From NCBI GenBank assembly GCA_041665405.1, contig JBAYIZ010000006.1, positions 407 to 64,406 on the forward strand: a stretch of DNA of 64,000 bases, read 5' to 3'. Source of the DNA: Candidatus Magasanikiibacteriota bacterium (lineage in GTDB: Bacteria; Patescibacteriota; Patescibacteriia; Magasanikbacterales; GWA2-37-8). Positions within the stretch are counted from its first letter, which is position 1; every line of letters starts with the position of its first letter. The position numbers were made by a program, and so were the translations under genes. This document shows positions 10,770-63,828 of this stretch, one piece after another. The notes beneath the pieces are model-generated. The model saw only the letters and a list, made by a program, of their open reading frames with translations, ran no database searches and was not told where the DNA came from.

Positions 10770-11006
10770 ACTAATTATATTTAAGCCAATACTACGCTAT
10801 TTTGCACAAAAAATCAAGACAAACAAAAAACTTCCTATAAGAAGAAGTTTTTTCTATTCTCATGTCGTTAACAACAACAGGAAAATGGATGCCTGCTTTT
10901 TTGTACCGTGAGCGCAGGCGAATCTCACATATTTTCCTTGCGGCGACTAGCCACGCATTAATCACATGCGCAACTTATCAAGCCGAATTGTGTTGGTACG
11001 GCGCGA

Positions 11007-11420
11007 TCAGCGCGCCTTGGGGGCGGCTGCTTCTCGCAGTTCGGCCAGCTTCCTGTCTACCTTTGGGGTGCCGAGGTGTTGCTTGGCCGCGAACACGAGC
11101 TTTGCGCGGGCAGATTGCACCGCCCTGTTCGAAGGACGACGGCCGGGTGGAGTCAAAGCCACCACCGCCTGCAACATTGCCTCCGTCGTCTGCTCGTCAC
11201 CCTGCTTGTACTCCCTGAGCGTGAACAGGACCTTCTCCACCTTCTCGTGGAGATCCCAGGACTCGCGCCAATACGGCCTGTCTTCGCCGGAATGGAACTT
11301 GTCGAGCATGGAGTGAGCCCTCCTCGACCTGAAGTAGCAAAGGACCAACACAAGCATCGACACGATGTTCACCGCAACACTGATACTGTGCCACATAGAA
11401 ATCCCCACTTCCTTCACCAT
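11007..11420 (-). CDS. small GC-rich protein with N-terminal TM helix (137 aa from MVKEV), hypothetical; GC island 1
   Basis: About 60% GC versus about 35% background; high GC3. Start at the internal ATG at 11420. The other overlapping ORFs in this island look like GC artefacts (S/R-rich). Confidence 0.45.
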   Translation of the reverse strand: MVKEVGISMWHSISVAVNIVSMLVLVLCYFRSRRAHSMLDKFHSGEDRPYWRESWDLHEKVEKVLFTLREYKQGDEQTTEAMLQAVVALTPPGRRPSNRAVQSARAKLVFAAKQHLGTPKVDRKLAELREAAAPKAR

Positions 11421-11571
11421 TGCTGACGAAGATGTTAGCTCTCTAGTTGGCGCGGGATGACACATCCACGCCCTTGCGACAAGCAAGCGGCAGCCCAGCT
11501 ACCTCTACTTTTTCCTTACCAAAAGAAAAACTAGCCGTAGCTTGGCCAAAATATATTTCAAAGAACGTGTA

Positions 11572-23159: not shown

Positions 23160-23175
23160 CTCCACAAACAAAAAC

Positions 23176-23215
23176 ATCCCGACTAAATCGAGATGTTTTA
23201 TTTTTAAAGCGTTTA
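23176..23215 (+). terminator. intrinsic terminator after the REC gene (imperfect 8-bp stem + TTTTATTTTT)
   Basis: CATCCCGA-CTAAA-TCGAGATG followed by a T-run. Confidence 0.45.
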
Positions 23216-23348
23216 TATCACTCGCACAATCTGAAAACAAATTTTATTTTCAAATTGCGCGGCGAGTGACATCTACCGCGTCTGCCCCACCGCCCGCTTG
23301 TAGCGAGTGGGGCTACGATGGCTAGTCTCTACAAATTAGCCCTTCCAT

Positions 23349-23822
23349 CTAGAAGGTGCCCGCCCCCAAGGCGAGTTGGACCTCCCATCCGAAGGAGTTC
23401 TTCTCCACGACGTCCTGTTGCCAGCCGACAGGGGCTTTCAGGAAAACGCGGGCACGCCACAGCTTCATACTGACCATCGGACCAGCCCCGTACAACAGCC
23501 CGTCGTTGCCCTTCTGTCCAGAAAGGACCCCGCCGAAGTTGAACGTGAGCCCATCAACGATCACGTCATAGGTGACGCCGTAGGCCATGCCGTAGCCCGA
23601 TACTTGGGTCGGAACCCAGAACTGGGCGAAGTGGGTCGTGTGACCATCCGGCTGGACCAAGTAGAGGCCCATGCCGATGTCGGTGCCGTCCTCAAACCCG
23701 GCGTGTTGCACGAACAGGCCGGCCCCACCAGTCTCCGGACCAGGACCCTCAGCCAGGGCGACTGAAGGAACTGCGAAAAGGACGACGCTCACGATGACGA
23801 AAAACCACGCGATGTGCTTCAT
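23349..23822 (-). CDS. GC-rich secreted beta-barrel outer-membrane-protein-like protein (OmpW/OMP_b-brl-like), GC island 2
   Basis: About 62% GC. Signal peptide MKHIAWFFVIVSVVLFAVPSVALA. Gly/aromatic-rich alternating strands and a C-terminal aromatic ...LALGAGTF. Start taken at the internal ATG at 23822, where the GC content begins. Confidence 0.5.
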   Translation of the reverse strand: MKHIAWFFVIVSVVLFAVPSVALAEGPGPETGGAGLFVQHAGFEDGTDIGMGLYLVQPDGHTTHFAQFWVPTQVSGYGMAYGVTYDVIVDGLTFNFGGVLSGQKGNDGLLYGAGPMVSMKLWRARVFLKAPVGWQQDVVEKNSFGWEVQLALGAGTF

Positions 23823-23994
23823 GGATTTACTCCGAAAACTAGAGTTCATCGGTACCCAGCCGACACACCACGCGACAATCATTGTCGAGAGGTAAGGGTG
23901 ATTATTTATTCCTATATACATTAGAAATACATAATTTCCTTTACCTCTTTGAGACATTATTTATCCATTATAATTTAAAAAGAACTAACTGAAC

Positions 23995-24023
23995 AGTATC
24001 ACACAAAACAATCAAATTGTCAA
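23995..24023 (-). promoter_or_regulatory. promoter TTGACA-17-(TGt)GATACT reading leftward toward the GC island 2 gene
   Basis: Reverse complement TTGACAATTTGATTGTTTTGTGTGATACT. The spacer shares TTGTTTTGTG with the island 1 promoter. Confidence 0.45.
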
Positions 24024-24032
24024 CATCTCTAT

Positions 24033-24061
24033 TGACAAACCCGCCTAAATATTATATTATC
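24033..24061 (+). promoter_or_regulatory. promoter TTGACA-17-TATTAT for the rpsL-rpsG-fusA operon
   Basis: Consensus -35 and near-consensus -10, 150 nt upstream of rpsL. Confidence 0.5.
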
Positions 24062-24207: not shown

Positions 24208-24636
24208 ATGCCTACAGTAAACCAATTGGTTAAAAAGGGTCGCATTAGCAAAGCCCGCAAGACCAAAGTACCGGCATTGCAATTTACCATTGATAACTTG
24301 CACCGCCGAAAAACCGTATTCGCCAAAGGCTGCGCCTTCAAAAGAGGTGTTTGCACTAAGGTATATACAACAACTCCTAAAAAACCTAACTCTGCTTTGC
24401 GTAAAGTCGCCAAAGTTCGTATGAGCAATGGATCAGAAGTTATCGCATATATCCCAGGTGAAGGTCACAATCTACAGGAACACTCTATCGTGCTTTTGCG
24501 CGGTGGTCGTGTAAAAGATCTTCCAGGTGTACGTTACCATATTGTTCGTGGTGTTTATGATGCTCAAGGTATCGAAAAACGCCGCCGCAGTCGCAGTATT
24601 TATGGTACAAAACGTCCAAAAGCAGCAAAGAAATAA
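24208..24636 (+). CDS. rpsL: 30S ribosomal protein S12
   Basis: [12 protein letters not shown]...[11 protein letters not shown]...HNLQEHS; highly conserved. Confidence 0.95.
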
Positions 24637-25155: not shown

Positions 25156-25240
25156 AAAGGGTAACTTTTTCGCTTTTTTTGCCCGCGAGGGCAAAAGGAT
25201 GAGCCTCGGCTCATAACCCGCTCAAAAGTAACCCTTTGCT
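25156..25240 (+). ncRNA. structured repeat R2 copy A: conserved 54-nt core (CGCUUUUUUUGCCCGCGAGGGCAAAAGGAUGAGCCUCGGCUCAUAACCCGCUC) closed by a copy-specific outer stem
   Basis: The core recurs at 38665-38718 and 48363-48415 with compensatory changes in two internal hairpins (GNRA loop GCGA; tetraloop CUCG/CGCG). The outer stem here is GGGUAAC.../...GUAACCC. Confidence 0.55.
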
Positions 25241-35047: not shown

Positions 35048-36172
35048 TTATTGTCTTATCGGCATCACTATATAAACAAAACTGTCGTCGTTGGTTGGTA
35101 CAAAGAGACACGGGCTGTCTGCGTTTATCATTTTCAGCATACTGGTTTCTGATTTAATATTATTTAAACCATCCAAAACATATCGGTGGTTCAACATAAT
35201 AGCATTGTCGTCGCCGTTTGTTTCCGCACTTATTTCAGAACTATATTCACCCGTCTGGGAAGAAGTGGAGGAAAGTTTTACGACGCCTTCTTTACTACTA
35301 ATTATACAAGATATAGCGTTTACACCTATTGTGGTAAACAAACTGGCCATTTTAATTTCTTTACTCATCTTTCCAGTATCAAACATCGCAGATGTTTTGA
35401 ATTCTTTTGGTATAATTTGTGCATAGTCTGGATAATTTCCTTCTACTAAGCGAGAAACTAGTTGAATATTACCGTAGTGCATAGCAATTTGATTCTCTCC
35501 AACTAATATTCTAACGTTTTTTTCTTTTTCTTCATTATCCGCTAACGACAGTATGTGGATTATTTCTTGAGCAGTTCTACCCGGAACAATAATTTTAAAA
35601 TCTCCTTCTCCTTGTTGAATTTTAATTTTCTTTTCAGCCAATCTATAACTATCTGTAGCCGCCAATATTAAACCGGCATAATATGAAGTATTAAATCCAA
35701 AATACATTCCTGATAATTCCGGTCTTATTTCTGATTTAGCCAAAGAGGAAACAGTTTGTCCTAGTCCGCTCTTTAGTTGTTCTGCATCAAACAAAAATCC
35801 ATTTCCATCACTTACAGAAGGAATAACTGGAAATTCGTCAGCTGGTATTCCTTTTATTTTCGTTGATGATTTTCCACAGGTTATAACTAGCTCATTTTCT
35901 TTTAATTCCATTTCAATCTTTTCGTCAGAAAGTAAACTAACAAATTCACTAAGTGTTTTGGAAGGAACTGTAAACGAACCAGATTCATCCACTTTTGATC
36001 TCACGTGAGCAACTATTGCCAATTCTAGATTGGTTGCAATTATTTCTGTTTTTTGATCATCTGCTTTAATCAATATATTTCCCAGTATTGGAAGATTCAC
36101 ATTTTTATTTGCTATCCCTCCTACTATAGAAAGTGCTTTCGATAAATTATCTTTTGTACAAGTTATTTTCAT
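35048..36172 (-). CDS. dnaN: DNA polymerase III beta sliding clamp
   Basis: Three-domain clamp, 374 aa, immediately downstream of dnaA. Confidence 0.9.
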   Translation of the reverse strand: MKITCTKDNLSKALSIVGGIANKNVNLPILGNILIKADDQKTEIIATNLELAIVAHVRSKVDESGSFTVPSKTLSEFVSLLSDEKIEMELKENELVITCGKSSTKIKGIPADEFPVIPSVSDGNGFLFDAEQLKSGLGQTVSSLAKSEIRPELSGMYFGFNTSYYAGLILAATDSYRLAEKKIKIQQGEGDFKIIVPGRTAQEIIHILSLADNEEKEKNVRILVGENQIAMHYGNIQLVSRLVEGNYPDYAQIIPKEFKTSAMFDTGKMSKEIKMASLFTTIGVNAISCIISSKEGVVKLSSTSSQTGEYSSEISAETNGDDNAIMLNHRYVLDGLNNIKSETSMLKMINADSPCLFVPTNDDSFVYIVMPIRQ

Positions 36173-36447
36173 AAAGGATGGTGCGGGTTACATTATTTAA
36201 TTAAGTATATATATAAAATAATAATAGTAATAAGGCTGTGGAAAGGGTTAATAAGTCGTTTTTTGTTTTCAAATTAGCCAAGTTTAAGGTGAATAATTTT
36301 TTAACAGTTTGGTATAAAAGTGTGTGTGAAAAACGATTTATTTAAGTTTATTTATTTTCTGTTGATAAGTGGTTGACTTGTTCTTTTTATATTAACAACT
36401 TATTAACATTCTTTGCACACCATTTAGCGAAGAAAAAAAACCATGTT
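36173..36447. other. dnaA-dnaN intergenic region, probable oriC segment with AT-rich unwinding element
   Basis: Very AT-rich tract TATATATATAAAATAATAATAGTAATAA plus a DnaA-box-like TGTTGATAA. Confidence 0.4.
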
Positions 36448-37842
36448 TTAGATATTATTGATATATAAACGCTGTCTTATTAATTCTAGTTCTTGTTTTA
36501 GTTTTAAATCATTATCTATTTCTTTGGTAATTTTTTCGTTGGCATGCATCGCTGTGGTGTGATCGCGTCCGCCCAGCTCATCGCCAATGGAAGGGAAAGA
36601 CATTTTAAGATCATTACGCAAAATATACATAATAATCTGGCGAGGATAAGAGAGCTTCTTTTCTCGGCTTTTACCACAAACATTTTCGGTGGAAACATTG
36701 AAAAAGGTGCAAACAGTCTCTATGGTCTGTTGTGATGTGACTGAACGTCTAGCCGAAGCAGAATCAAAACTAGAAAGAATTGATTTTACTGATTCGGCTG
36801 TCGGGGCCATATTTTTTAATTGATGATAAGCAATAATTTTATTTAGGGCGCCTTCAAGCTCACGAATGTTGCTCTGAACAATAGTAGCAACTGTATTTAG
36901 GGTTTTGTCGTCCAAAACAAAATTCTTTTCTTGGCACTTTTTGCCCAAAATAGCGACACGTGTTTCAAAATCAGGGGCAGAAACATCCACAATCATTCCC
37001 CACTCGAAGCGAGATTTGAGGCGATCCTCAAGGGCAGGGATGGCTTTTGGTGGGCGGTCAGAAGTTAAAATTACCTGCTTGTTTGCCTGGTGGAGCTCGT
37101 TAAAAGTATGAAAAAACGATTCTTGGCTGGCATCTTTGCCAGCGATGAACTGAATATCATCAATTAACAAAGCGTCGATAGTACGATAGCGGTTTTGGAA
37201 GTCTCTCGCTCCACCACTACGCAAAGAAGTAATAAAATCGTTGGTAAATTTCTCAGCACTAACATACAAGATATTGGTTTGAGGGTTTTTTTTCAACAAT
37301 TCATTGCCAACCGCCTGTAAAAGATGGGTTTTCCCCAAACCTACACCACCGTAGATAAACAGTGGATTGTAGGCCTCACCAGGACGGTCTGCCACTGCCT
37401 TGGCGGCGGTGAAAGCCAATTCGGAGCCTTTGCCAACCACAAAACTATCAAAATTGTATTTTGGGTTAATGGTAAATCCATGAGAAGCGACAGATTGGTG
37501 ACTAGTTTGTTGAGAGTATGAAGGTGTTTTTTCGTTTTCATGAGATACCGACGGGGAAGGAGGGGTGTTTATTGGTTGTTCCACAACATTTTTGATATTT
37601 TCGATCTTGTATTCCATCCTTCTAATAGGAAGGGCGGTGACCCTCTCTAAAGATTGGATGATTTGGTGGTGGTGTTTTTTTTCAATCCACGCCTGATTAA
37701 AGGTGTTTGGGACGCAGACAATAACATGGCCTTCTTGAAAACTAACAATACCAGTATTTTTGAACCAGGTGTTAAAATTCGCTTTGGAAATGGTTAATTC
37801 TAATTCAGATAAAACAGCCTGCCAAATTTCATTATTAGTCAT
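36448..37842 (-). CDS. dnaA: chromosomal replication initiator DnaA
   Basis: Walker A GGVGLGKTHLL and the C-terminal DNA-binding domain. Confidence 0.95.
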   Translation of the reverse strand: MTNNEIWQAVLSELELTISKANFNTWFKNTGIVSFQEGHVIVCVPNTFNQAWIEKKHHHQIIQSLERVTALPIRRMEYKIENIKNVVEQPINTPPSPSVSHENEKTPSYSQQTSHQSVASHGFTINPKYNFDSFVVGKGSELAFTAAKAVADRPGEAYNPLFIYGGVGLGKTHLLQAVGNELLKKNPQTNILYVSAEKFTNDFITSLRSGGARDFQNRYRTIDALLIDDIQFIAGKDASQESFFHTFNELHQANKQVILTSDRPPKAIPALEDRLKSRFEWGMIVDVSAPDFETRVAILGKKCQEKNFVLDDKTLNTVATIVQSNIRELEGALNKIIAYHQLKNMAPTAESVKSILSSFDSASARRSVTSQQTIETVCTFFNVSTENVCGKSREKKLSYPRQIIMYILRNDLKMSFPSIGDELGGRDHTTAMHANEKITKEIDNDLKLKQELELIRQRLYINNI

Positions 37843-38641: not shown

Positions 38642-38743
38642 TTTAAAAAACTTTTATTTTATTTCGCTTTTTTTGCCCGCGAGGGCAAAAGGATGAAGCC
38701 GCGGCTTCATAACCCGCTCAATTAAAATAAAAGTTTTTTAAAT
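38640..38743 (+). ncRNA. structured repeat R2 copy B filling the whole rnpA-yidD spacer
   Basis: Same core as 25171-25224, with a compensatory extra A-U pair in hairpin 2 (AUGAAGC-CGCG-GCUUCAU). It sits inside a 22-bp AT-rich outer stem (AATTTAAAAAACTTTTATTTTA.../...TAAAATAAAAGTTTTTTAAATT) that reaches the yidD start. Confidence 0.55.
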
Positions 38744-44157: not shown

Positions 44158-44330
44158 ATATGTATGATTAAAAATACTTCGCAATATTATCTTAAAACAC
44201 AAAAAAAGTCAATTTTATGGCTGTGGTATTGCTTTTTTGAGGATGTTGGTGTATATTTTTTAAATCCACCCGTGGCCAGGTCGTGTTATATAGACACAGC
44301 CTCGGCGACTATAGCGAAAGAGGGGAAACC

Positions 44331-44529
44331 ATGGCGCGAGCCAAACCGGCAACGGACACGTGTTGAGGTACATGTTCGATTCCAGTTCAACCTCAGGCCG
44401 CAACAACGGGCTGAGGAGGCCACGCAGAAGGCCAAGAAGTGGCAGAGGGACAACCCGGGCTGGGGCTGTGATCCCAACCCCACGACGATCGGCAACGGCT
44501 ACGCTACCTTCAGGGCTCGTCGCACCTGA
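44331..44529 (+). pseudogene. GC island 3: small GC-rich ORF apparently frameshifted (SD+ATG at 44331 gives 11 aa; the high-GC3 frame continues to TGA 44527-44529)
   Basis: Good RBS AGAGGGG-6-ATG. The long ORF with GC3 bias (EVHVRFQFNLRPQQRAEEATQKAKKWQRDNPGWGCDPNPTTIGNGYATF...) is in the +1 frame relative to that ATG and has no start codon of its own. Confidence 0.25.
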
Positions 44530-44667
44530 CGACGATCAACCTCTTCGACGCACACCCCCAGTCGAGCACAAGTTGCTCCTGGGGGCGGGGCTTAGATGAA
44601 ATTATCCTTCCTGTCCTAAGTAGAAAAAATATTTTCTTTTTAGGACAAGGATAATTTCTTAAAATAA

Positions 44668-48341: not shown

Positions 48342-48443
48342 CATCCCAGACAATGACTTTTTCGCTTTTTTCGACCGCGAGGTCGAAAGGATGAGCCTCG
48401 GCTCATAACCCGCTCAAAAGTAATTGTCTGGGATGTTTTTTTG
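48342..48443 (+). ncRNA. structured repeat R2 copy C immediately 3' of tRNA-Cys; outer stem + T7 acts as an intrinsic terminator
   Basis: Core 48363-48415 has compensatory hairpin-1 changes (CGACC-GCGA-GGUCG versus GCCC-GCGA-GGGC). It lies inside a 16-bp stem CATCCCAGACAATGAC/GTAATTGTCTGGGATG followed by TTTTTTT. Confidence 0.55.
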
Positions 48444-48453: not shown

Positions 48454-48482
48454 TTGACTTTGTGTTTTTTATCAAGTAAAAT
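48454..48482 (+). promoter_or_regulatory. promoter TTGACT-17-TAAAAT reading into GC island 4
   Basis: AT-rich host-type promoter; the GC-rich leader begins directly after the -10. Confidence 0.45.
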
Positions 48483-48576
48483 ATTTTTGTGTCCCAAACG
48501 ACCGACGGTTCGCCGTTCGGTCACAACGACCACTTGCACCGCTCATCGGTGGTGGTCTCGAAAAGGAGAGAGAGCC

Positions 48577-48798
48577 ATGCGTGTGCTTCCCTCGATCCTG
48601 AACCAGAGCCGGAGACGGAGCGACAATTCCGCCGATTGCGGGCAGGTCGCGAGCTCCGAGGCCGACTTCATCCACAGGCAACTGCTCGAGCATGGCTTCT
48701 GCTCGGACATGAAGGAGGGCGCCGTCGGCACCGCCAACATGGTCGGCATCGTCTGTTCGACCGCGGCCGGCCGCGGAGCAGTAGTCCTCCTGGTGTAG
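48577..48798 (+). CDS. small GC-rich protein (73 aa), hypothetical; GC island 4
   Basis: Strong SD AAAGGAGAGAG-5-ATG. About 65% GC with high GC3. Sequence MRVLPSILNQSRRRSDNSADCGQVASSEADFIHRQLLEHGFCSDMKEGAVGTANMVGIVCSTAAGRGAVVLLV. The longer overlapping track ORFs are GC artefacts. Confidence 0.5.
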   Translation: MRVLPSILNQSRRRSDNSADCGQVASSEADFIHRQLLEHGFCSDMKEGAVGTANMVGIVCSTAAGRGAVVLLV

Positions 48799-48827
48799 GG
48801 CTCAGCTTCGTACGAGACAACCAGTGC

Positions 48828-48881
48828 GGCCGGACCGGGAGCTCCTTCGGGGGTTTCTGGTCCGGCCGTCGTTTCCTTTTT
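48828..48881 (+). terminator. GC-rich intrinsic terminator of island 4 (GGCCGGACC...GGTCCGGCC + T-run)
   Basis: 9-bp GC stem enclosing a second hairpin, followed by TTTCCTTTTTATT. Confidence 0.6.
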
Positions 48882-48962
48882 ATTATATTTAATACTCAAA
48901 GCGGGTATTTTTTTATTGCTCAAAAAAGGGTTTGCGTGTAAAATAAGAACGAATAATATTTT

Positions 48963-51638
48963 ATGTCAAAATTTGTAATTATTGATGGGAACGCTATTGT
49001 GCATCGTGCTTATCACGCTTTGCCTCCGATGAACACCAAAGACGGGGTGATGGTGAATGCGGTGTATGGATTTACTTCCATGTTGCTCAAGGTTTGGAAA
49101 GATTTGAGGCCCACGCATTTGTGTGTGAGTTTTGATGTGGCCGGTGGGACTTTTCGTCATGAGAAATTTGAGCAATACAAAGGTACGCGCGTGAAGGCGG
49201 ATCAGGAATTGTATGATCAGATGCCTTTGGTGCATGAAGTGGTGGAGGCGTTTAGTATTCCGATTTATGAAATGAAAGGGTATGAGGCGGATGATGTGAT
49301 TGGAACTGTGGTGCGTAGGATTGAAAACGAAGTGGACGAGGTGTATATTGTGACGGGTGATATGGACACCCTGCAATTGGTGGATGAAAAAATAAAAGTT
49401 TATACTTTGCGCAAAGGCATGAGCGATATTGTGATATATAATCCAGAAGAAGTAAAAAAGCGTTTTGGTTTTGGACCGGAATTGGTAATAGATTACAAAG
49501 CTTTGCGCGGAGATCCTTCGGATAATATTCCGGGGGTGCCTGGAATTGGTGAAAAAACAGCGACGGATTTGATTTTGAAATTTGGTGATTTGAAAGAAAT
49601 ATATAAAGTGGTAAACGCAGAAAAAGATAAAAAGAAAAGTGATTTATTTAGTTCGTCGGTTTTGAATAAATTATCGCAGGGTGAAAAAAGTGCACAGATG
49701 AGTTATGAATTGGCGACGATAGATTGTGCCGTACCGGGTTTGAATTTTAGTTTGGAAAATTGTGCGATGAGTGAATTTGATCATGATAAAATTTTGAAAT
49801 TATTTCAGAAATTTGAGTTTGTGTCTTTGATGAAACGGATTCCTGGGTTTGATAAGTATGATGTGGTGGAACCAGAAAAAACTACGACAGTAAAAAGCAA
49901 GAAAATGGCTGAATTAAATTTTAAAGAACTAGGGAATAAAAGCGAGGCAAAAGAATTGGTGGAGAAAATAAAAAAGAACGGGCAGTTTGCCTGTCGGGCG
50001 GCGATGAGTGGGAAAGATGTTTTGACCAGTGACTTTTTTGGGTTGGTGGTGATTGTGGAAAGTGAAGGGTATTTTGTTAAAAATAATTTGGTGGAAGAAT
50101 TTTTGCCGATTTTTGACGATGAAAAAATTGAATTGGTGGGGCATGATTTGAAACAATTGGTGAAGGTTTTATTATTGCAAAAACAGGAAATAAAAAACTC
50201 TTTGTTTGATGTAATGGTGGGGTCGTATCTGCTCAACCCAGGCAGTCGTGCTCATGATAGTGCCAGTGTGGTGTTGAAAATATTGGATAAAGAATTAAAG
50301 GTGGGTAGTGGGCAAGAAAGTTTATTCGGGGTAGATGCAAAAGCGTTGGCGGCGGAGTTATATTTAATATTACAAACTGTTGAAAAAATTAAAACTGAAT
50401 TGAACAAGACAGATAATTTGGGTTTGTTACAAAAAATAGAAATGCCGTTACTTTTGGTGTTGGCACAGATGGAATTAAATGGGATTGCGGTGGATTTGGA
50501 GATGCTCCAAAAATTATCGGTAGAAGTAAATGATAGTATTAAAAAAGTTTCCAAAAAGATTTTTGATTTAGCCGGAATGGAATTTAATATTTCTTCACCG
50601 TTGCAATTGAGGGAAGTATTATTTGAAAAACTGGATATTCCTGTCGAGGGAATAAAAAAAGGCAAGACCGGTTTATCTACTTCGGCTGAACAATTGGAAA
50701 AAATGCACGGGCTACATCCGATTATTAAAGAAATTGAAATTTATCGTGAGTTGGCTAAATTGCAAAATACTTATGTGGACGTATTACCGACTTTGATTAA
50801 TAAAAAAACAGGACGAATTCACACCACCTTTAATCAGGCGGTGACGGCCACCGGCAGGCTGTCTAGTTCTGAACCGAATTTACAGAACATTCCAATTCGT
50901 ACCGAGATCGGTCGTGAAGTGCGCAAGGCGTTTGTGTCTGAAAAGGGTAACGTGTTGATTAGTGCAGATTACTCACAGATTGAATTGCGAATTGTGGCTT
51001 CGATGGCGCAAGACAAACGGATGATGGAAATTTTTGAAAAAGATTTAGATATTCATAGAGCCACAGCGGCGGCGATCAATGGAGTTCCGCTAGAAGAAGT
51101 CACCAAAGAAATGCGTCGCGCGGCCAAAGAAATTAATTTTGGTGTGTTGTATGGTATGGGAACATACGGTCTAAGTTGGCGCGCGGAAATTTCTCATGCT
51201 CAGGCGAAAGAATTTATCCAAAAATATTTTGAACAATTTAGCGGGGTAAAGCAGTATATAGATCAGACATTGGAATTCACTAAGACAGAAGGATATTGTG
51301 AAACGCTATTTGGGCGCCGAAGATATTTGCCAGAATTGAGATCACAAAATTTTCAGATGCGCAGTGCGGCCGAACGCATGGCGATTAACCACCCTATCCA
51401 AGGCACAGCTGCCGATCTGATCAAGATGGCGATGATTGAAGTGGGAAAAAAATTGAAAGAATATCCAGAGGTAAGAATGCTTTTGCAAGTACACGACGAA
51501 TTGGTGTTAGAAGTGAAAAAAGGTGAAGAAGAAAAGATCGGCAAGATTCTCAAAGAGACGATGGAAAATGTGGTGAAGCTGAGGGTGCCGGTAAAGGTAG
51601 AGGTGAACATCGGACATAGTTGGGGGGAGATGAAATAA
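48963..51638 (+). CDS. polA: DNA polymerase I
   Basis: N-terminal 5'-3' exonuclease (FEN) domain. Pol A motifs DYSQIELR, RRAAKEINFGVLYG, HDELV. Confidence 0.9.
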   Translation: MSKFVIIDGNAIVHRAYHALPPMNTKDGVMVNAVYGFTSMLLKVWKDLRPTHLCVSFDVAGGTFRHEKFEQYKGTRVKADQELYDQMPLVHEVVEAFSIPIYEMKGYEADDVIGTVVRRIENEVDEVYIVTGDMDTLQLVDEKIKVYTLRKGMSDIVIYNPEEVKKRFGFGPELVIDYKALRGDPSDNIPGVPGIGEKTATDLILKFGDLKEIYKVVNAEKDKKKSDLFSSSVLNKLSQGEKSAQMSYELATIDCAVPGLNFSLENCAMSEFDHDKILKLFQKFEFVSLMKRIPGFDKYDVVEPEKTTTVKSKKMAELNFKELGNKSEAKELVEKIKKNGQFACRAAMSGKDVLTSDFFGLVVIVESEGYFVKNNLVEEFLPIFDDEKIELVGHDLKQLVKVLLLQKQEIKNSLFDVMVGSYLLNPGSRAHDSASVVLKILDKELKVGSGQESLFGVDAKALAAELYLILQTVEKIKTELNKTDNLGLLQKIEMPLLLVLAQMELNGIAVDLEMLQKLSVEVNDSIKKVSKKIFDLAGMEFNISSPLQLREVLFEKLDIPVEGIKKGKTGLSTSAEQLEKMHGLHPIIKEIEIYRELAKLQNTYVDVLPTLINKKTGRIHTTFNQAVTATGRLSSSEPNLQNIPIRTEIGREVRKAFVSEKGNVLISADYSQIELRIVASMAQDKRMMEIFEKDLDIHRATAAAINGVPLEEVTKEMRRAAKEINFGVLYGMGTYGLSWRAEISHAQAKEFIQKYFEQFSGVKQYIDQTLEFTKTEGYCETLFGRRRYLPELRSQNFQMRSAAERMAINHPIQGTAADLIKMAMIEVGKKLKEYPEVRMLLQVHDELVLEVKKGEEEKIGKILKETMENVVKLRVPVKVEVNIGHSWGEMK

Positions 51639-51683
51639 AATTAAAAAAATCGACCACACAAAGTAGTCGGTTTTTTTGTTTGT

Positions 51684-53282
51684 TTATTTTTTTATACTTC
51701 TCAACATTATTCTTTTAAAATCTTGCGCAATTTCATAACGCAAGCCTTTTCTATTTAAGTTAACCTTGTTTCTAAGAGTTTCTAAGTATGTTTTATGTTC
51801 TGAACTTGTTAAGTATTCTCGCATGATTTCATCCCTTAATTTTGCCCAATCCTCAGAGTTTTTAAGCCATTGTTTTTCTAGAGGGACACCTAATGTTTTG
51901 TACATTTTTGCTGGATCCATTACGCTATGCATAGTATCATGTTTTCTAAAAAGTTTTGGATTCTCTCGGGCGTTTTTTTCTTTTTCAAACATGTTACTAT
52001 ACATACCAAAATCGATAGTTCCAACGATAGGTGTCCAAATATTTATACGGTAGTTGGTTTGAGGATTTTTTTTCATAAATGTAAGCATGGTCTTCTTTAT
52101 TTCATCTTTTGTATATCGAAAATGTTCGGGTAACCCTAAGATTAGCAAGGTTCTCACCATGAGAAATTTTTTTGCAGAATTAATAAACTCTGTAGCCACT
52201 TCAAGACTATCGCCTTTTGCTAAATCTTTTCTATTGCCGATAACATCTTCTACACCAACGGCAATTTCAATACAGCCAGCTTCAGCCATTTCTTTAAATT
52301 TTCTTAAACCCTCAAACTGCTTGACGCTCATAAAAGCAACCCACCCCATCTTATTTTTATGTTGCTGATTGAAGTGTTTCATAAAATTTATAAAATCTTC
52401 AAAGTGTTTCGGGTTGGCATTTAGTAAGGCATCACGTACAAAAACAAAATCCTTACCTTGTTTATAAAGTTTTTTTATTTCATTTTTGGCTGTGTCAAGA
52501 CAAGACACATATCCACCATAAAAAGAATCACTAGTGCAGAAAGTGCATTTATGAATACATCCGGCGCTAGTAGCTGTCGAACCGGCATTTTTGAAGTGTT
52601 TGTCTAATTCTAAAAAAGGCATTTTATTTATTTGAGAGCCATCGGTAGAAGCCGCTACAGGTATCAATATCTCAAGAGCATTGTTTTCTGTTAGCCGAGG
52701 AAAATTTTTACCAGTTTTTTTAGTGTTTTCAACAATACATAAATTTGTGTTTGTATCCTTTGTTGTATACGCAATTGAGCCTATTTTTTTCAAAGGAACC
52801 CCTAACGATAGAGCCAACATTGGCAATTCTCCTTGTCCGGTACAACAAATATCTATCCCAGTAATTTCTGGGTGTTGTAAAATCCATTTATAATCAAGCG
52901 CAAAATGTTCAGCCCCTCCGATTACTGTTTTTTGAGGATACTTGTTTTTTATTTTACGACACAACTCAAAGGATTCATTTATACTAGTAGACTGACTACT
53001 AATGCCAATAATTTCGGATTGTTGAATAAGATTTTCCATTGCGGACGTTTTTTGGTCTTGAAGATATGCTATGTCCACCGATATGCCAAATTTTTTTAAG
53101 TATCCAGCTATTCTTTTGATGCCGAGATTTTCTAATCTTAAATGATATTCGTCGGCTTCATATTTGGATTCGGTTATGTTGCCGTCAATAAGTAGAACCC
53201 TTTTTCTGGGTAGTTTTTTGTTGAAAGCCATTTTTTGCAGAGCATTCAATGAAATAATTTGTGTTGTTGTCGAAGTTTCCAT
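51684..53282 (-). CDS. B12-binding-domain radical SAM protein
   Basis: N-terminal Rossmann-like B12-binding-type region. Radical SAM cluster motif CIHKCTFC (Cx3Cx2C); 532 aa. Confidence 0.7.
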   Translation of the reverse strand: METSTTTQIISLNALQKMAFNKKLPRKRVLLIDGNITESKYEADEYHLRLENLGIKRIAGYLKKFGISVDIAYLQDQKTSAMENLIQQSEIIGISSQSTSINESFELCRKIKNKYPQKTVIGGAEHFALDYKWILQHPEITGIDICCTGQGELPMLALSLGVPLKKIGSIAYTTKDTNTNLCIVENTKKTGKNFPRLTENNALEILIPVAASTDGSQINKMPFLELDKHFKNAGSTATSAGCIHKCTFCTSDSFYGGYVSCLDTAKNEIKKLYKQGKDFVFVRDALLNANPKHFEDFINFMKHFNQQHKNKMGWVAFMSVKQFEGLRKFKEMAEAGCIEIAVGVEDVIGNRKDLAKGDSLEVATEFINSAKKFLMVRTLLILGLPEHFRYTKDEIKKTMLTFMKKNPQTNYRINIWTPIVGTIDFGMYSNMFEKEKNARENPKLFRKHDTMHSVMDPAKMYKTLGVPLEKQWLKNSEDWAKLRDEIMREYLTSSEHKTYLETLRNKVNLNRKGLRYEIAQDFKRIMLRSIKK

Positions 53283-55485: not shown

Positions 55486-56220
55486 ATGGAAAATTTGAAT
55501 ATTCTAAAAGAACTCGGTTTAGACGACCAAGAAGCGAGTGTATATATGGCTTTATTAAAATTGGGTGGATCTCAAGCCAGTGTTGTAGCCAAAGATGTTG
55601 GCATTAAACGGACAACAGTTTACCCTGTTTTGCAGGCGTTGGCGGCCAAAGGGATGGTAAATGTTTATTTTCGAAAAAACCGCCATTTCTATTATGCTCA
55701 AAAACCAAATAGAGTGGTGGGTATTTTCAAAAAGAAAATAGAATCATTTGAAAGTATTATTCCAATGTTGGAACTAGTTGAAAAAAAACAAGTGATGGCC
55801 ACGGGTTTGCGCTTTATTGAAACAGTTGAAGAATTAAAACAATTTTATAACGGAATTTTAGATGAGTATAAAGGGAAGCAATATCTGGCAATTGGAAATA
55901 CGGCGGCATGGGAGGGATTGGAACCAGAATTTTTTGTAAACTTTCGTAGACAAAGAGCAGAAAATAAAATTAAAACGAAATTACTATTAACATTTAATTC
56001 TGTCGAAATAAATCCAATAGAAACCTCGCTATTAAGAGAGTGGAAATATCTTCCTGAAAAATATAAATTTCAAAGTACGATAGATATTTTTAATGATAAA
56101 ATTTTGATTGTGAGTCCGGAGCTAAGTTCGTTGGCGGTGGTGATCGCGGTGCCGGCGATGACGGATATTTTTAAATCTGTTTTTGAGATGTTGTGGCAGA
56201 TGTTGCCGGAGGTGAAATAA
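55486..56220 (+). CDS. TrmB-like winged-helix transcriptional regulator (short paralog, 244 aa)
   Basis: N-terminal LKELGLDDQEASVYMALLKLGGSQASVVAKDVGIKRTTVYPVLQALAAKGMV matches the TrmB wHTH. Divergent from the aminotransferase operon. Confidence 0.7.
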   Translation: MENLNILKELGLDDQEASVYMALLKLGGSQASVVAKDVGIKRTTVYPVLQALAAKGMVNVYFRKNRHFYYAQKPNRVVGIFKKKIESFESIIPMLELVEKKQVMATGLRFIETVEELKQFYNGILDEYKGKQYLAIGNTAAWEGLEPEFFVNFRRQRAENKIKTKLLLTFNSVEINPIETSLLREWKYLPEKYKFQSTIDIFNDKILIVSPELSSLAVVIAVPAMTDIFKSVFEMLWQMLPEVK

Positions 56221-56226
56221 TTAAAA

Positions 56227-56260
56227 CAAAAAACCGATTGCAATATGCAGTCGGTTTTTT
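56227..56260 (+). terminator. conserved intrinsic terminator AAAAAACCGATTGCAATATGCAGTCGGTTTTTTT (family shared by TrmB paralogs)
   Basis: 8-bp stem with a G-U pair plus T-run. Near-identical copies at 61128-61162 and 63041-63076. Confidence 0.65.
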
Positions 56261-56269
56261 TAGTTTATT

Positions 56270-57910
56270 TTACTCAATAAAAAGATTTTCCGTAGAATAA
56301 TTATTTTTTATTAATTTATCATTTATTAAAACTTTTATAATTTCATCAACCACTGAATTAAAATCATCTGGAATTGTATCAAAGAATTCTATCTTTTTTA
56401 ATGATTCGGTTAATTCGCGCTCAGGTATCCCAACATGAGATGAGGCAATATTTATTACCTCTTTTTCTTGTTTTTTCCATATCGCGACGGATTGATTCCA
56501 CACCTTCTTAATTTTTTCAATCTCTTTGGTTTTTTGTTGTAGTAATTTATTGTTTACAATCAATACATCATATAGGATAGGATAATCGTTTGTGGTTTTT
56601 AAAATATTTATATTTGAAAGTTCAAGCGCTTTTTCAAGCCATGGCTCCCAAATAATTCCAGCTTCAATATTACCCGCGATAATTCCAGCTCCAATTTCAG
56701 AGCATTGCATATCTTTAATTTTTACATCTTTAGAGGTCATCCCTTCTTTTTGGAGAATATATGAGAGAAAAAATTCCGCCACCGATCCTTTTTCGAGTCC
56801 TATGGTTTTACCTTTTAATTCAATTACGGATTTTATATTTGACTGTGCAACTAACGCATCGCCACCGACGGAGCGATTCAATACCTTTACTATTCTAAGA
56901 TCTGTTATTTTTGAGTGTAATTCGATGGCTTTATCTAGGGTAACATTTATTGCGTCTAGCTTTCCTTGCTCCCACAGCTCAACTTTTTTCTTGTTATCTT
57001 CAAAATTGATTTGTTCCACATCAAGCGACTCGTCGATAAACAGACCGCTATCTTTTGCATAGTAAAGGGGGGTGTTTCCAGACCAAATATATAATCCCAT
57101 TTTGAAAACATCAGTATCAGTAACAATCCCTTCTTCCAAGCTCGCCTTGATTGATTCTGAACGAATAATGTAACTGATGAACTTTTTTAGTTTTATAAAA
57201 TCTTCATGGAATCTGATTTCAGGTTTTCGTGGTCGTTTGATATTTACTTTTACTACCTGTTTGACAGTTCCTGGATTTAGTCCTAAGACAATAATTCTAT
57301 CCGCTAAGTATATTGCTTCATCAATGTCATGGGTGACTAAAATCATTGTTTTTTGTTCTTCTTCCCATAGTCTTGCTAAAAATTCTTGCATTTGAGATCT
57401 CGTTTGTACATCAAGAGCGCCAAAAGGTTCGTCAAATGCAATTAGGTCAGTCTGTTGTGCTATTGCTCTGGCAATAGCGATTCTTTGTTGCATGCCTCCT
57501 GAAAGCTTGTTGGGGAAATAATCTTTGACCTTGTAAAGGCCAACTCGTTTAAGTAATTTGTTAGTTTCAGTACGTACTTCAGTCTCAGACATATTTTTAC
57601 CGTAAAATCCAATGGCAATATTTTCGAAAACATTCAACCAAGGAAAATTAGAGTATTGCTGAGAAACTAATGCAATTCTATTATTTTCTAAATATTTGGA
57701 GCTGTCTAAACCATTGATTTTTATATTTCCTTCGAATACAGTGTCCAAACCTGTTACGCATTTTAAAATAGTGCTTTTACCTGAGCCGCTTGGGCCAACT
57801 ATACACACTATCTCCCCCTTTTTTATATCAAAAGAGATATCATTTATTGCGATAAAAGATTTATTTTCGCGATCATAATAATGTTTAGTTAGTTTGTGGA
57901 CTTCAATCAT
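56270..57910 (-). CDS. ABC transporter ATPase (NitT/TauT family) fused to a C-terminal NMT1/THI5-like domain
   Basis: Walker A GPSGSGKST, signature LSGGMQQR, Walker B IAFDEP. An extra 300-aa C-terminal periplasmic-binding-like domain. Start set to ATG 57910, 5 nt after the permease stop. Confidence 0.8.
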   Translation of the reverse strand: MIEVHKLTKHYYDRENKSFIAINDISFDIKKGEIVCIVGPSGSGKSTILKCVTGLDTVFEGNIKINGLDSSKYLENNRIALVSQQYSNFPWLNVFENIAIGFYGKNMSETEVRTETNKLLKRVGLYKVKDYFPNKLSGGMQQRIAIARAIAQQTDLIAFDEPFGALDVQTRSQMQEFLARLWEEEQKTMILVTHDIDEAIYLADRIIVLGLNPGTVKQVVKVNIKRPRKPEIRFHEDFIKLKKFISYIIRSESIKASLEEGIVTDTDVFKMGLYIWSGNTPLYYAKDSGLFIDESLDVEQINFEDNKKKVELWEQGKLDAINVTLDKAIELHSKITDLRIVKVLNRSVGGDALVAQSNIKSVIELKGKTIGLEKGSVAEFFLSYILQKEGMTSKDVKIKDMQCSEIGAGIIAGNIEAGIIWEPWLEKALELSNINILKTTNDYPILYDVLIVNNKLLQQKTKEIEKIKKVWNQSVAIWKKQEKEVINIASSHVGIPERELTESLKKIEFFDTIPDDFNSVVDEIIKVLINDKLIKNNYSTENLFIE

Positions 57911-59948: not shown

Positions 59949-61118
59949 ATGCTGATAAAAGACCTCCAATCTATCGGTTTTACCAAGAATCTATCTGAGG
60001 TTTATTTGTCTTTAGCCCAATTGGGAGGCCAGGCCAAAGCTGGGGAAATCATCAAAAAGACAGGTTTACACCGAAATATCGTTTATATTTGTTTAGACAA
60101 ACTAATAGAAAAGCAATTATTAACTAAAACCGAAGAACGCGGTGTTACTATTTATAAAACACTAGATCCAGCCCGACTAATGAATGAAATTCGAGAAAAA
60201 GAACAATTAACAACAAATATTATTGAAGAAATTGAAGCATTAAAAAAGCATCCAGACACTCAAGAAATAATTGTCCACGAAGGTTTGGAAGGTTTTAGAA
60301 ATTTCAATCTCTATACTTTGAAAAAAATCGAAGAAGGTGGCACATTGCAAGTGCTTGGTTCCATTGGAGATAAATGGTTTGAATACATGGGTGAAGAAAA
60401 GTACAAAGAATATATAAAAATACAAAACAAGAAAAAAATTAAGTGGGAGATGATTACTTATTTTGATTCAAAACGCGACAAACAATTTATTAATGACTAT
60501 CCAGAATTATGCGAGGTAAAATTATTACCGCAGACATATGATAATCCGGCCAGCATTTATATTTTTGGAGATACAATTTCAATAAATATTTTTACCGAAC
60601 CATTTTCGGTGATTGAAATAAAAAATCGCGCGGTGGCGGATGTATATAGAAATTATTTTAGTTTGTTGTGGAACCAAGAAGTGTTTACCTATCGCGGTTG
60701 GGATGCGATTGATAAAATTTTGTGTGCGAATTTGGAAGATGGATTTACTTATGATGTTTTTGGGGCAACATATGGTGTGGGTACAAAAGAGGAACAAGAT
60801 CGCGTGTTGGAATTTTTTATGGAGAACCACAGAAAGACCGCACACTTTAAACCAAATAGACGATTGATATTTTTTGAACAAGATCGTGAGCAGGCGGCTA
60901 AAGAAGTTTCTCCGTTGGATGCAGACACTCGTAAAAATGTTCGTTTGCGTTTTCTGTCAGACAAATATTTTTCGCCGATGGAGACACATTTGTTTAAAGA
61001 TAAAGTAATTTTAATTTTTTCTTTTGGCGAACCAATCGCGACAGTTTATACCAATCCAAAAATAATTGAAGTTTACAAAAAACAATTTGAGTTGTGGTGG
61101 GGGATGTCGGTGGAATAA
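59949..61118 (+). CDS. TrmB-like regulator, long paralog (389 aa)
   Basis: N-terminal wHTH IGFTKNLSEVYLSLAQLGGQAKAGEIIKKTGLHRNIVYICLDKLIEKQLL plus a C-terminal effector-like domain. Paralogous to 61919 and 63976. Confidence 0.7.
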   Translation: MLIKDLQSIGFTKNLSEVYLSLAQLGGQAKAGEIIKKTGLHRNIVYICLDKLIEKQLLTKTEERGVTIYKTLDPARLMNEIREKEQLTTNIIEEIEALKKHPDTQEIIVHEGLEGFRNFNLYTLKKIEEGGTLQVLGSIGDKWFEYMGEEKYKEYIKIQNKKKIKWEMITYFDSKRDKQFINDYPELCEVKLLPQTYDNPASIYIFGDTISINIFTEPFSVIEIKNRAVADVYRNYFSLLWNQEVFTYRGWDAIDKILCANLEDGFTYDVFGATYGVGTKEEQDRVLEFFMENHRKTAHFKPNRRLIFFEQDREQAAKEVSPLDADTRKNVRLRFLSDKYFSPMETHLFKDKVILIFSFGEPIATVYTNPKIIEVYKKQFELWWGMSVE

Positions 61119-61127
61119 AATTTAAAA

Positions 61128-61162
61128 ACAAAAAACCGATTGCAGATTGCAGTCGGTTTTTT
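61128..61162 (+). terminator. conserved TrmB-paralog terminator AAAAAACCGATTGCAGATTGCAGTCGGTTTTTT
   Basis: Same family as 56227 and 63041. Confidence 0.65.
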
Positions 61163-61308
61163 GATAACTTCTTGAGCTCAACAAGATGTTGGAGTGAATG
61201 AGCGGTCACTACCAGCCGCGTGACTTTTTGTTTTACCGGTAGTCACAAACCGGATGATCCCAGACCCCTCATCAGCGGACCATTGAATTGTCCTGAAACT
61301 TTGCACCT

Positions 61309-61707
61309 CTACGCCTGTTCGCGACAGGGCAGGCATTCGTAGCCCACCCAAAGGCCGTTGGCAAAGGTGAAGTCGAAGTCCCAGCGGTTGTCACCACCGT
61401 ACCAGCAGAGGCTGGCAGTGTATTTGAATCCATTGGGGGCGAGAAGAGTGGTGCCAGTGAGCACGATCTTCTTCTTACGCATTTTCATCGGAATCTGGTC
61501 TTGGTGGTCAAGCAGTTGCTGGCCGTCACGCACTCCAAGGACGCCATTCCGACGACGTGCGCGTTCGCGCAATTCGGAGCCCTTGATGCATTCCTCGCCA
61601 CGCTTGAGGCACGACTCGATCCGGAGCTTGTTGATGTGAAGATCTGCAATTGGATCACAGTCTTCCACAACCTTAAACTCCACCCTGTTCCAAACGAATG
61701 TATTCAC
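61309..61707 (-). CDS. GC-rich Cys-rich small protein (132 aa, GTG start), hypothetical; GC island 5
   Basis: SD AAGGAGGTGA-4-GTG. About 58% GC. Contains CxxC-like pairs (ESCLKRGEEC, ECLPCRE). Divergent from the TrmB paralog at 61919. Confidence 0.45.
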   Translation of the reverse strand: MNTFVWNRVEFKVVEDCDPIADLHINKLRIESCLKRGEECIKGSELRERARRRNGVLGVRDGQQLLDHQDQIPMKMRKKKIVLTGTTLLAPNGFKYTASLCWYGGDNRWDFDFTFANGLWVGYECLPCREQA

Positions 61708-61918
61708 CTTTCACCTCCTTGCGGTTCTGACAGGTTGGTTGCTCTGAAGAGAGCAATTGTTGTTAACAACTCAATAAAATATCATATTTCACTTTATTGG
61801 TCAATCATTTTATCCCTAAAATTAGCAAAAAAATCAGATAAAAGCTGACAAAATTATGTTGGGGGTTGACTTTTTGGCTAAATTCATATAAAATAATCAT
61901 CATAAATAATATGACAAT

Positions 61919-63031: not shown

Positions 63032-63040
63032 CACTAAGAA

Positions 63041-63076
63041 CAAAAAACCGATTGCGATATGCAGTCGGTTTTTTAA
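63041..63076 (+). terminator. conserved TrmB-paralog terminator AAAAAACCGATTGCGATATGCAGTCGGTTTTTT
   Basis: Same family as 56227 and 61128. Confidence 0.65.
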
Positions 63077-63168
63077 TTACTTCTTGAACCAAAATGATTT
63101 AGTTCGAAAAGTAGCTGCGCGTCTTTTTGACCGGGACGCGCAACCGGGTGAGAGGGTGGAACCGGACG

Positions 63169-63660
63169 TCACAGGAATGCGATTCCCAGTGACGGCTGGA
63201 ACAGCAACGAGTAATCGCCGCCATCCAGGGTCTTCGCCAGTCCAAATGCCATGGACAGCGACAGACCGTTTCCGATTCCGTAGGCCAGGCCGGTGCCCAG
63301 ACCAACCAAGTCGGAAGACGGCTTGCCGCCGTAACCGACATTGCGCTGGTAGAGCACGCTGGCCTGGGTGGACCAACGATCAGTCAGTCCCAGCGACACA
63401 CCTGCAGAGAGGCGTGGGCTGGGCTTGCAACTGTCGTTGGGGGTGGCCAGCCCGATTCCGCCCGCGATGGACACCTTGTTGGAGACCTTCTCCGACAGCG
63501 AGATGTCGTAGCGGGTGGAGGCCGAGGCGGGGGTGAGCCCGTCCTTCAGGAGGACGACGTAGCCCTCCCGGATGTTGAAGACCGGGGTCAGGGCGCTGGC
63601 CGAAGCCGAGACACCGCTCAGAACCACGGCCACCAGGACGATCAGGGTGGAGATCTTCAT
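63169..63660 (-). CDS. GC-rich secreted beta-barrel OMP-like protein (163 aa); GC island 6
   Basis: Signal peptide MKISTLIVLVAVVLSGVSASASA, Gly-rich amphipathic strands, C-terminal ...LGIAFL aromatic terminus; SD GAGGTG. About 62% GC. Confidence 0.5.
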   Translation of the reverse strand: MKISTLIVLVAVVLSGVSASASALTPVFNIREGYVVLLKDGLTPASASTRYDISLSEKVSNKVSIAGGIGLATPNDSCKPSPRLSAGVSLGLTDRWSTQASVLYQRNVGYGGKPSSDLVGLGTGLAYGIGNGLSLSMAFGLAKTLDGGDYSLLFQPSLGIAFL

Positions 63661-63728
63661 GGGACACCTCTGCAGACCAGAAGGCCTGCCATCTGCATTA
63701 GTCAGTCAGGTTGCATTTGCGAACCCAT

Positions 63729-63776: not shown

Positions 63777-63828
63777 TCGTCTGGCAGTTGTAAAGAACAG
63801 TGTTACGGGTTATTGATCGTAACAAGCC

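Follow-up and report, generated by a model that had tools for sequence, protein, structure and literature searches.

Two GC-rich genes of a Candidatus Magasanikbacteria bacterium encode small, putatively exported proteins, one of them a predicted outer-membrane-type beta-barrel

We analysed a stretch of 64,000 nucleotides (64 kb, hereafter the window; contig JBAYIZ010000006.1, positions 407 to 64,406) from a bacterium of Candidatus Magasanikbacteria, a lineage of the Patescibacteria/Parcubacteria group within the candidate phyla radiation (CPR). The whole window has a GC content of 38% and contains six sharp GC-rich islands, two of which carry the minus-strand genes considered here: island 2 (23349-23822; 157 amino acids counted from the signal-peptide Met) and island 6 (63169-63660; 163 amino acids, a signal peptide followed by a predicted eight-stranded, lipid-facing beta-barrel). 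We give somewhat better than even chances to the reading that both are genuine CPR genes for small exported proteins and that the island 6 product is a CPR-restricted barrel of the outer-membrane protein (OMP) type, which inserts outside the cytoplasm without the beta-barrel assembly machinery (BAM).

Both genes encode candidate secreted proteins

An earlier note on this DNA, made from its letters alone, had described the two open reading frames (ORFs) as signal-peptide-bearing, barrel-like proteins in a CPR background. Both ORFs are indeed present, and identical proteins with the same neighbours were found in independent assemblies (JGI 3300037810; Logan SRR6484324), showing that islands 2 and 6 are not artefacts of a single assembly. 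In line with that note, inspection of the sequences revealed signal peptides of canonical n-h-c organisation with an A-x-A site, MKHIAWFFVIVSVVLFAVPSVALA preceding EGPG and MKISTLIVLVAVVLSGVSASASA preceding LTPV, both of the type expected for the Sec pathway and signal peptidase I (SPase I) and neither with a lipobox. The signal peptide of island 2 covers residues 1-24 (23751-23822, minus strand), with the n-region MKH, a hydrophobic core and predicted cleavage after A-L-A, leaving a mature part of 133 amino acids that ends in LGAGTF; that of island 6 covers residues 1-23 (63592-63660, minus strand), with predicted cleavage after A-S-A. These assignments were made by eye; an N-terminal helix is present in both structure models, and a purine-rich ribosome-binding site (RBS) precedes both genes. 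Neither BLASTP (E = 0.30) nor hhalign linked the two proteins, which the earlier note had described as not close paralogues and which we regard as unrelated.

The island 6 protein is predicted to fold as a membrane barrel

In the AlphaFold2 (AF2) model of island 6 (predicted local distance difference test, pLDDT, 63), an N-terminal helix precedes eight strands, each 10-13 residues long. When this model was compared with the PDB using Foldseek, Ail, NspA, OmpA, OmpX and the N-terminal domain of OprF came out on top (probability 1.0, template modelling score, TM, 0.53-0.62), and 49 of the best 50 matches were membrane barrels, the only soluble barrel standing at rank 44. Fold matches in the viral library were phage-encoded OMP barrels, with TM values of up to 0.67.

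Three further lines of evidence, namely face composition, the corresponding columns in relatives and the placement of indels, are independent of the model coordinates. Along the strands of island 6, 33 large hydrophobic residues lie on one face and 30 small plus 13 polar residues on the other, a segregation (z = 5.4) that was reached by none of 20000 shuffles. In the four other members of the protein family described below, three of which are no more than 20-27% identical, the same columns hold 140 large hydrophobic, 13 small and 31 polar residues on the first face, versus 25, 107 and 62, respectively, on the second. Invariant across the family on the small/polar face are R83, G87, S101, Q105, N107, G120 and G140. 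Indels among family members are confined to two loops, L1 with 8 columns and L4 with 5, and to single residues in turns, and the strands are essentially free of them. We infer that a hydrophobic surface around a small/polar core represents the inside-out pattern of a lipid-embedded barrel and not that of a soluble barrel of the lipocalin or avidin type, with the outward orientation of the hydrophobic face taken from the model together with packing logic. As modelled, island 6 would belong to the class of eight-stranded OMP barrels, with eight antiparallel strands in a closed meander and a hydrophobic exterior, and we regard this assignment as well supported.

The island 2 protein is most likely an orphan representative of the same class

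In contrast to island 6, for which relatives are described below, no homologue of island 2 was found by exhaustive HMMER searches over 1.84 billion representatives, where the two weak matches, repeat proteins with MAM or other domains, were not counted as real. Likewise, k-mer searches and comparisons with PDB sequences, Pfam, NCBIfam, PHROGs and viral contigs returned no relative, and hhalign revealed no link to either of the two new CPR families. Judged by these comparisons, the island 2 protein is a true orphan. Its mature part contains 18.8% Gly and 13.5% aromatic residues, and by eye it can be divided into eight strand-length segments that are separated by turn-like DG or GNDG motifs and followed by a C-terminal Phe. 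Alternating 9-mers are enriched (18 versus 5.3 +/- 3.8), with 18 being reached in 38 of 5000 shuffles. With these sequence signals, which are weaker than those of island 6, the island 2 protein would in all likelihood be another orphan member of the barrel class, the third.

Several observations weigh against reading the two proteins as barrels inserted into a membrane. The island 6 model is of moderate confidence and was built from a two-sequence alignment, and a period-2 hydrophobic-moment test gave only weak values (z = 1.5-1.7); because an OmpX control reached only 1.1 in this test, it was replaced by the strand-face and alternating-9-mer permutation tests. Scores for the Pfam family OMP_b-brl were below the gathering score (28.7 bits) in every case, with 19.4 bits for island 6 (E = 0.0013) and 15.6 and 12.7 bits (E = 0.019 and 0.15) for two other CPR proteins of the same class, although such sub-threshold matches in three otherwise unrelated proteins also speak in favour of the fold. 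The strict C-terminal beta-signal of BAM-dependent proteins, Gly-X-X-Ar-X-Ar (PMC7383365), occurs in none of the 11 CPR proteins compared. Eight of these 11 end in an aromatic residue, including island 2 (Phe); the earlier claim of a C-terminal aromatic in both proteins fails for island 6, which ends in GIAFL with Leu last and Phe second to last, and a close relative of which ends in F-P. For island 2, the AF2 single-sequence model shows all-beta hairpins at a pLDDT of 49, Foldseek found no fold match for this model, Pfam returned no match, including OMP_b-brl at E <= 1, the strand-face segregation was not significant (z = 1.7, permutation), and the protein has no relative on which selection could be measured. 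Structure prediction and the strand-face analysis thus bear out the proposed barrel layout for island 6 and give it no support for island 2. In addition, the 64 kb examined are part of a genome, and Bam or Tam could be encoded elsewhere in it; to our knowledge, there is no established route that places a beta-barrel in the membrane of a monoderm cell; and function as well as TrmB-like regulation are read from sequence and genomic context.

Among the alternatives, the one that survives best, which we nevertheless consider unlikely, is that the proteins are exported but remain soluble or wall-associated, as beta-rich surface proteins of an adhesin, amyloid-like or lectin-like kind, and that their likeness to OMPs is a modelling artefact of Gly-rich alternation. 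The moderate (island 6) and poor (island 2) model confidence, the Pfam scores below cut-off, the lack of a strict beta-signal and of a known receiving membrane in CPR would all be compatible with this alternative. It is contradicted by the face composition of island 6, with about 33 large aliphatic or aromatic residues on one face versus Gly, Ala, Ser and polar residues on the other, since a small soluble barrel shows the opposite arrangement, by the conservation of this face pattern at 25% identity, and by the predominance of membrane barrels among the best PDB matches.

Island 6 belongs to a small CPR-restricted family under purifying selection

A metagenome search with the TrmB-like gene at 59949-61118 led to the AT-rich contigs L030-L034, in which GC-rich islands lie beside TrmB-like genes and encode beta-rich proteins with signal peptides, most of them with a C-terminal Phe. 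The proteins of L031, L033 and L041 are distant homologues of island 6 and share with it the motifs P-[NH]-x-x-x-[KQR]-P-x-P-R-[LF]-[ST]-x-G and Q-x-N-x-x-Y. In a profile search over 5.8 billion clusters, five members of the island 6 family were retrieved, none of which is named or has a Pfam domain. The family is confined to CPR, has members in contigs syntenic with the window, and shows 20-29% identity among its distant members. The island 6 protein itself is recorded under Candidatus Magasanikbacteria, which supports the CPR background assumed in the earlier note.

A second group of proteins, family A, does not occur in the window and shows no sequence relationship to the proteins of islands 2 and 6. 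Its genes are found in L030 (5140-5754), L032 (5094-5756) and, threefold, in L034 (716-1333, 3690-4355 and 4534-5139), all on the minus strand. They are GC-rich, encode beta-rich proteins of about 200 amino acids with a signal peptide and mostly a C-terminal Phe, and each lies beside a TrmB-like gene on a contig of related CPR bacteria; one member showed a weak OMP_b-brl match.

The closest diverged relative of island 6, P0003 in locus L004, is 78% identical. The two genes differ at 27, 17 and 54 sites in the first, second and third codon position, respectively, with indels comprising whole codons, and their codon changes are synonymous in 41 and non-synonymous in 35 cases. Compared with L004, island 6 has a dN/dS ratio (NG86) of 0.23; the value falls to 0.16 when only the mature part is considered, and in the signal peptide it is about 1.1. 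With a dS of 0.60, compared to 0.88 for the flanking TrmB-like gene (dN/dS 0.035), the protein evolves approximately four times faster than those of its neighbours. The dN/dS ratio, the in-frame indels and a dS near that of the flank therefore establish island 6 as a functional gene that has been in the lineage about as long as its neighbours. Together with the existence of a CPR family and a promoter conserved in four of five family genes, this rejects the idea, raised in the earlier note, that island 6 is a non-functional passenger.

High GC is a lasting feature of the genes themselves

Across the 49 native genes of the window, the GC content at third codon positions (GC3) is 0.333 +/- 0.045 and nowhere exceeds 0.43. 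Islands 2 and 6 are outliers with a GC3 of 0.78 (z = 9.9) and 0.82 (z = 10.8), and values of 0.64/0.42/0.78 and 0.58/0.50/0.82, respectively, for GC1/GC2/GC3. High GC3 was observed in all five members of the island 6 family (0.65-0.87, in contigs with a GC of 0.34-0.41) and, when family A is included, the range for both families is 0.57-0.87 in contigs of 0.31-0.41, while the adjoining TrmB-like gene in L041 has a GC3 of 0.24. The maximum-scoring GC segment of island 2 spans 23257-23760 (GC 0.625), and the GC-rich core of island 6 (63131-63690, GC 0.641) corresponds approximately to the coding region +/- 30-40 nucleotides (nt). Indeed, the GC excess of island 6 is essentially limited to the coding region, with a GC of 0.45 in the leader and 0.25 in the promoter region.

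Such composition could reflect recent import from GC-rich diderm donors, with OmpX/OmpA-type genes persisting as neutral or decaying passengers without a role in the CPR cell, as the earlier note implied; we regard this as improbable. It would account for the gap between the GC3 of both genes and the native 0.33, for the sharp, gene-sized boundaries of the islands and for the occurrence of island 2 in only one strain, and differences with G/C in the window versus A/T in L004 outnumber the reverse (54 versus 25), which could indicate amelioration in L004 with the direction of change unpolarised. In contrast, no donor-like homologue, and none from a GC-rich genome, was found in the 5.8 billion clusters or the 1.84 billion representatives, and the five island 6 family members are all GC-rich in AT-rich CPR contexts. 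At an identity of 20-29%, synonymous sites are saturated, so that the high GC3 reflects a steady state specific to these genes and not an un-ameliorated recent import. Moreover, the promoter in AT-rich upstream DNA is conserved together with the gene, and island 6 has a low dN/dS and a dS comparable to that of the flank; for this gene, import is already largely refuted. That a donor not yet sampled should have contributed such genes time and again to one promoter context seems far-fetched. Gene-confined GC-richness is thus a stable property of these genes and not a trace of recent import. The bias might be upheld by selection acting on mRNA or on codon usage, or by biased gene conversion, be it in a rearranging array or at a recombination hot spot; a possible analogue is vls, a GC-rich locus of the AT-rich Borrelia.

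By eye and by repeat search, no shared island ends, target-site duplications or attC-like sites were seen, but only ordinary hairpins. A contig scan with the histidine kinase from the neighbourhood returned only distant relatives (<=50% identity), with neither an empty site nor an orthologous island. When the short contig L001 was compared with the window, five mismatches were found between window positions 24237-24255 (5' end of rpsL) and L001 127-145, all within 19 nt near the contig's end. These clustered mismatches probably represent an assembly-end artefact or a strain-variant patch and, as all are located at the contig end in rpsL, they are uninformative on island 2.

The six islands, all intergenic, are located at 10861-11520, 23221-23920, 44241-44640, 48461-48940, 61181-61740 and 63061-63780 (islands 1 to 6). 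Islands 1, 3, 4 and 5 (GC 0.53-0.56), with unrelated ORFans, have the same composition and no Pfam or PHROG match. Island 1 has an ORF at 11007-11486 (minus strand, GC3 0.72) with a possible transmembrane helix, and the Cys-rich ORF of island 5 (61309-61707, minus strand, GC3 0.67) lacks a signal peptide and is transcribed divergently to a TrmB-like gene. No clear ORF is present in islands 3 and 4.

Conserved promoters and TrmB-like partner genes

A strong promoter-like site, embedded in AT-rich DNA, lies some 165 nt ahead of the ATG of each gene. That of island 2 (TTGACA-17-tgGATACT, 23995-24023, minus strand, GC 0.33 in the surrounding DNA) lies back-to-back with the promoter-like site of rpsL (24032-24060, plus strand), and a terminator-like hairpin with a 13-bp stem and a T-run (23171-23199, minus strand) is common to island 2 and the convergent response-regulator gene. 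That of island 6 (TTGACA-17-tgTATACT) is located at 63829-63857 on the minus strand. The 5' leader of island 6 (63661-63822, minus strand) contains a perfect 16-bp hairpin and, directly ahead of the RBS (AGAGG), a second, small one. Its predicted RNA fold (z = -6.05), which none of 200 shuffles equalled, is partly kept in L004, and the leader may act as a regulatory RNA element or a palindromic operator. A bidirectional terminator-like hairpin of repeat family D1 (63042-63074, plus strand) separates island 6 from the TrmB-like gene at 61919-63031. Near-identical terminator-like hairpins of the form AAAAAACCGAyTGC...GCAGTCGGTTTTTT were seen at 51637-51689, 56221-56273, 61123-61175 and 63035-63087, and two members of this hairpin family directly adjoin islands 5 and 6.

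In the window, L004, L031, L034 and L041, a barrel-like gene is divergent from a long TrmB-like gene, often within tandem arrays, and the partner genes have a TrmB match in Pfam. The long TrmB-like gene divergent from island 6 starts at 63976-64000 (plus strand; 650 amino acids in L002), preceded by a promoter-like site at 63921-63949 that has 12 of 12 consensus matches and stands back-to-back with the one of island 6. The TrmB-like gene at 61919-63031 (plus strand, 370 amino acids) is transcribed towards island 6 and away from the island 5 ORF, and its product is 31% identical to the TrmB-domain protein of L004. With those at 55486-56220 and 59949-61118, these genes form a tandem array of four TrmB-like paralogues whose unit content varies between strains. 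In L004, the order is TrmB-A, the island-6-like gene and a TrmB-like gene with a start like that of TrmB-C in the window; the island-6-like gene adjoins a 94%-identical orthologue of 59949-61118, and the additional unit of island 5 and TrmB-B found in the window is lacking.

A promoter block, CTTGACAAGTAyAA-N7-TGtGATAtAnT (63829-63865 in the window), is present in four of the five family genes, namely those of the window, L004, L041 and L031, even though the proteins share only about 25% identity. Its conserved spacer suggests an overlapping operator. From this arrangement, we consider it probable that a TrmB-like transcription factor controls the genes of the island 6 family.

The window is core chromosome and contains no Bam, Lol or LPS genes

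The window has the content of a core chromosome, including dnaA, dnaN, rnpA, rpsL-rpsG-fusA, polA and the genes for trigger factor and an H+-pyrophosphatase (H+-PPase), and it also encodes PBP1, LspA, a type IV pilus operon and the four TrmB-like genes. No Bam, Lol, lipopolysaccharide (LPS), Tol or secretin gene was found in the 64 kb, even beside the type IV pilus operon, and the check for Bam and Lol components suggested by the earlier note was therefore negative for this part of the genome. CPR bacteria are treated as lacking an outer membrane in surveys (10.1101/2025.01.22.634366; 10.1101/2021.05.31.446380).

It is very unlikely that these cells possess an unrecognised outer membrane or a BAM-like machinery and that islands 2 and 6 encode ordinary outer-membrane proteins. 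Only 64 kb were covered, and CPR envelopes have been directly characterised in few members (PMC8871954), which would leave room for this explanation; the gene content of the window, the treatment of CPR as monoderm and the lack of the strict BAM beta-signal in all 11 proteins argue against it. That the islands are structured RNAs or GC-rich non-coding DNA with chance ORFs is the least credible explanation of all, as, even though overlapping ORFs turn up in several frames of either strand where DNA is GC-rich and two islands are devoid of a clear one, GC3 exceeds GC1 and GC1 exceeds GC2 in the frame of the canonical signal peptides, permissive Rfam scans of islands 2 and 6 gave chance-level matches only, with no family at or near gathering, and the synonymous/non-synonymous contrast and in-frame indels have already refuted it for island 6.

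Apart from the islands, dnaA and dnaN are located on the minus strand (35048-37842) at the minimum of the cumulative GC skew, with rnpA nearby, and the chromosomal replication origin probably lies within the window. A 68-nt repeat is present in three copies (25164-25231, 38658-38725 and 48356-48423; 69-94% identical), 3' of rpsG, of rnpA and of tRNA-Cys, respectively, each with two small GC hairpins and, in copies 2 and 3, flanked by 26-nt inverted repeats. It has no Rfam match at the gathering threshold and could be an element resembling a miniature inverted-repeat transposable element (MITE) or a small RNA.

Discussion

Our analyses point to the following scenario. Islands 2 and 6 would each be transcribed independently, and their products exported by Sec and cleaved by SPase I, as indicated by promoter-like sites and signal peptides. 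The island 6 protein would fold into an eight-stranded antiparallel barrel of the OMP type, with a hydrophobic belt and a small/polar core that includes R83, Q105, N107 and glycines. Its family is very small, fast-evolving, restricted to CPR and held under purifying selection, probably with a TrmB-like regulator in control. The barrel would then insert, without BAM, into a lipid layer outside the cytoplasm, most plausibly where symbiont and host are in contact. BAM-independent insertion is deduced from a lineage thought to have no outer membrane and from the absence of the strict BAM motif, and it is conceivable because small OMPs can fold into bilayers unaided in vitro (PMC7383365). The fast evolution of the protein, the turnover of the array between strains and the dedicated regulator are most economically read as signs of a role at the cell surface or at the interface with the host. 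As a more far-reaching and rather doubtful extension, which takes up the earlier note's speculation on insertion into host membranes, this CPR clade might maintain its own families of BAM-independent barrels for a foreign lipid layer, such as the outer membrane of a Gram-negative host where the cells attach; there they would act as adhesin or pore, and the genes would be switched by dedicated TrmB-like regulators and kept at a GC-rich equilibrium of their own.

OMP-type barrels are regarded as a hallmark of two-membrane cells and organelles, in which they are assembled by Omp85/BamA. If the barrels of CPR were tools acting on a host membrane, they would provide a concrete molecular entry point to the ways in which ultra-small episymbionts bind or exploit their hosts; if they were a relic or a re-invention, they would bear on the debate about outer-membrane loss. 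Alternatively, some CPR envelopes may not be as currently thought. Independent of the fold, a GC3 about 10 standard deviations above that of the genome, maintained across saturated divergence, challenges the equation of composition outliers with recent transfer, and the combination of AT-rich conserved promoters with GC-rich coding regions lends itself to a clean test of forces that act on base composition gene by gene in bacteria.

How do these proteins compare with known systems? Phage-encoded small outer-membrane barrels, such as lambda Lom and metagenomic OMP_b-brl/Opacity-like proteins, are single genes of the 'moron' type and can block phage adsorption (10.1101/2025.02.28.640651). The island genes resemble them in the fold matched by island 6, in standing alone, each gene equipped with a promoter and a terminator, and in their atypical composition. 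In contrast, the known phage barrels act in the outer membrane of diderm hosts, the island proteins have no PHROG match and no relatives in viral contigs, and the neighbours of the islands are housekeeping genes with no phage genes nearby.

With regard to Pfam families, the earlier note had likened the layout of both proteins to that of OmpW/OMP_b-brl barrels; our comparisons do not place them in these families. OMP_b-brl (PF13505) matched island 6 and two CPR proteins of the same class only weakly and below gathering, and did not match island 2. OmpW (PF03922), likewise an eight-stranded barrel, appeared at rank 29 among the fold matches of island 6 (TM 0.44; 2f1t), behind Ail, NspA, OmpA and OmpX, and had no Pfam match. 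In terms of sequence, island 6 falls outside OMP_b-brl, OmpW and all PHROGs.

The closest structural counterparts are OmpX/Ail/Lom, NspA/Opa and the transmembrane domain of OmpA. Like island 6, these proteins have about 135-140 mature residues, a Sec signal peptide and eight long antiparallel strands with a hydrophobic outer face, a small/polar core and longer loops that alternate with short turns. On the other hand, island 6 shows no sequence similarity to these proteins, phmmer and profile searches having retrieved nothing from PDB sequences, no strict beta-signal and very short loops, and it belongs to a lineage regarded as monoderm, is paired with TrmB-like genes and is a GC-rich gene in an AT-rich genome. 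Judged by its predicted fold, island 6 would work in the manner of OmpX, Ail, NspA or the transmembrane domain of OmpA.

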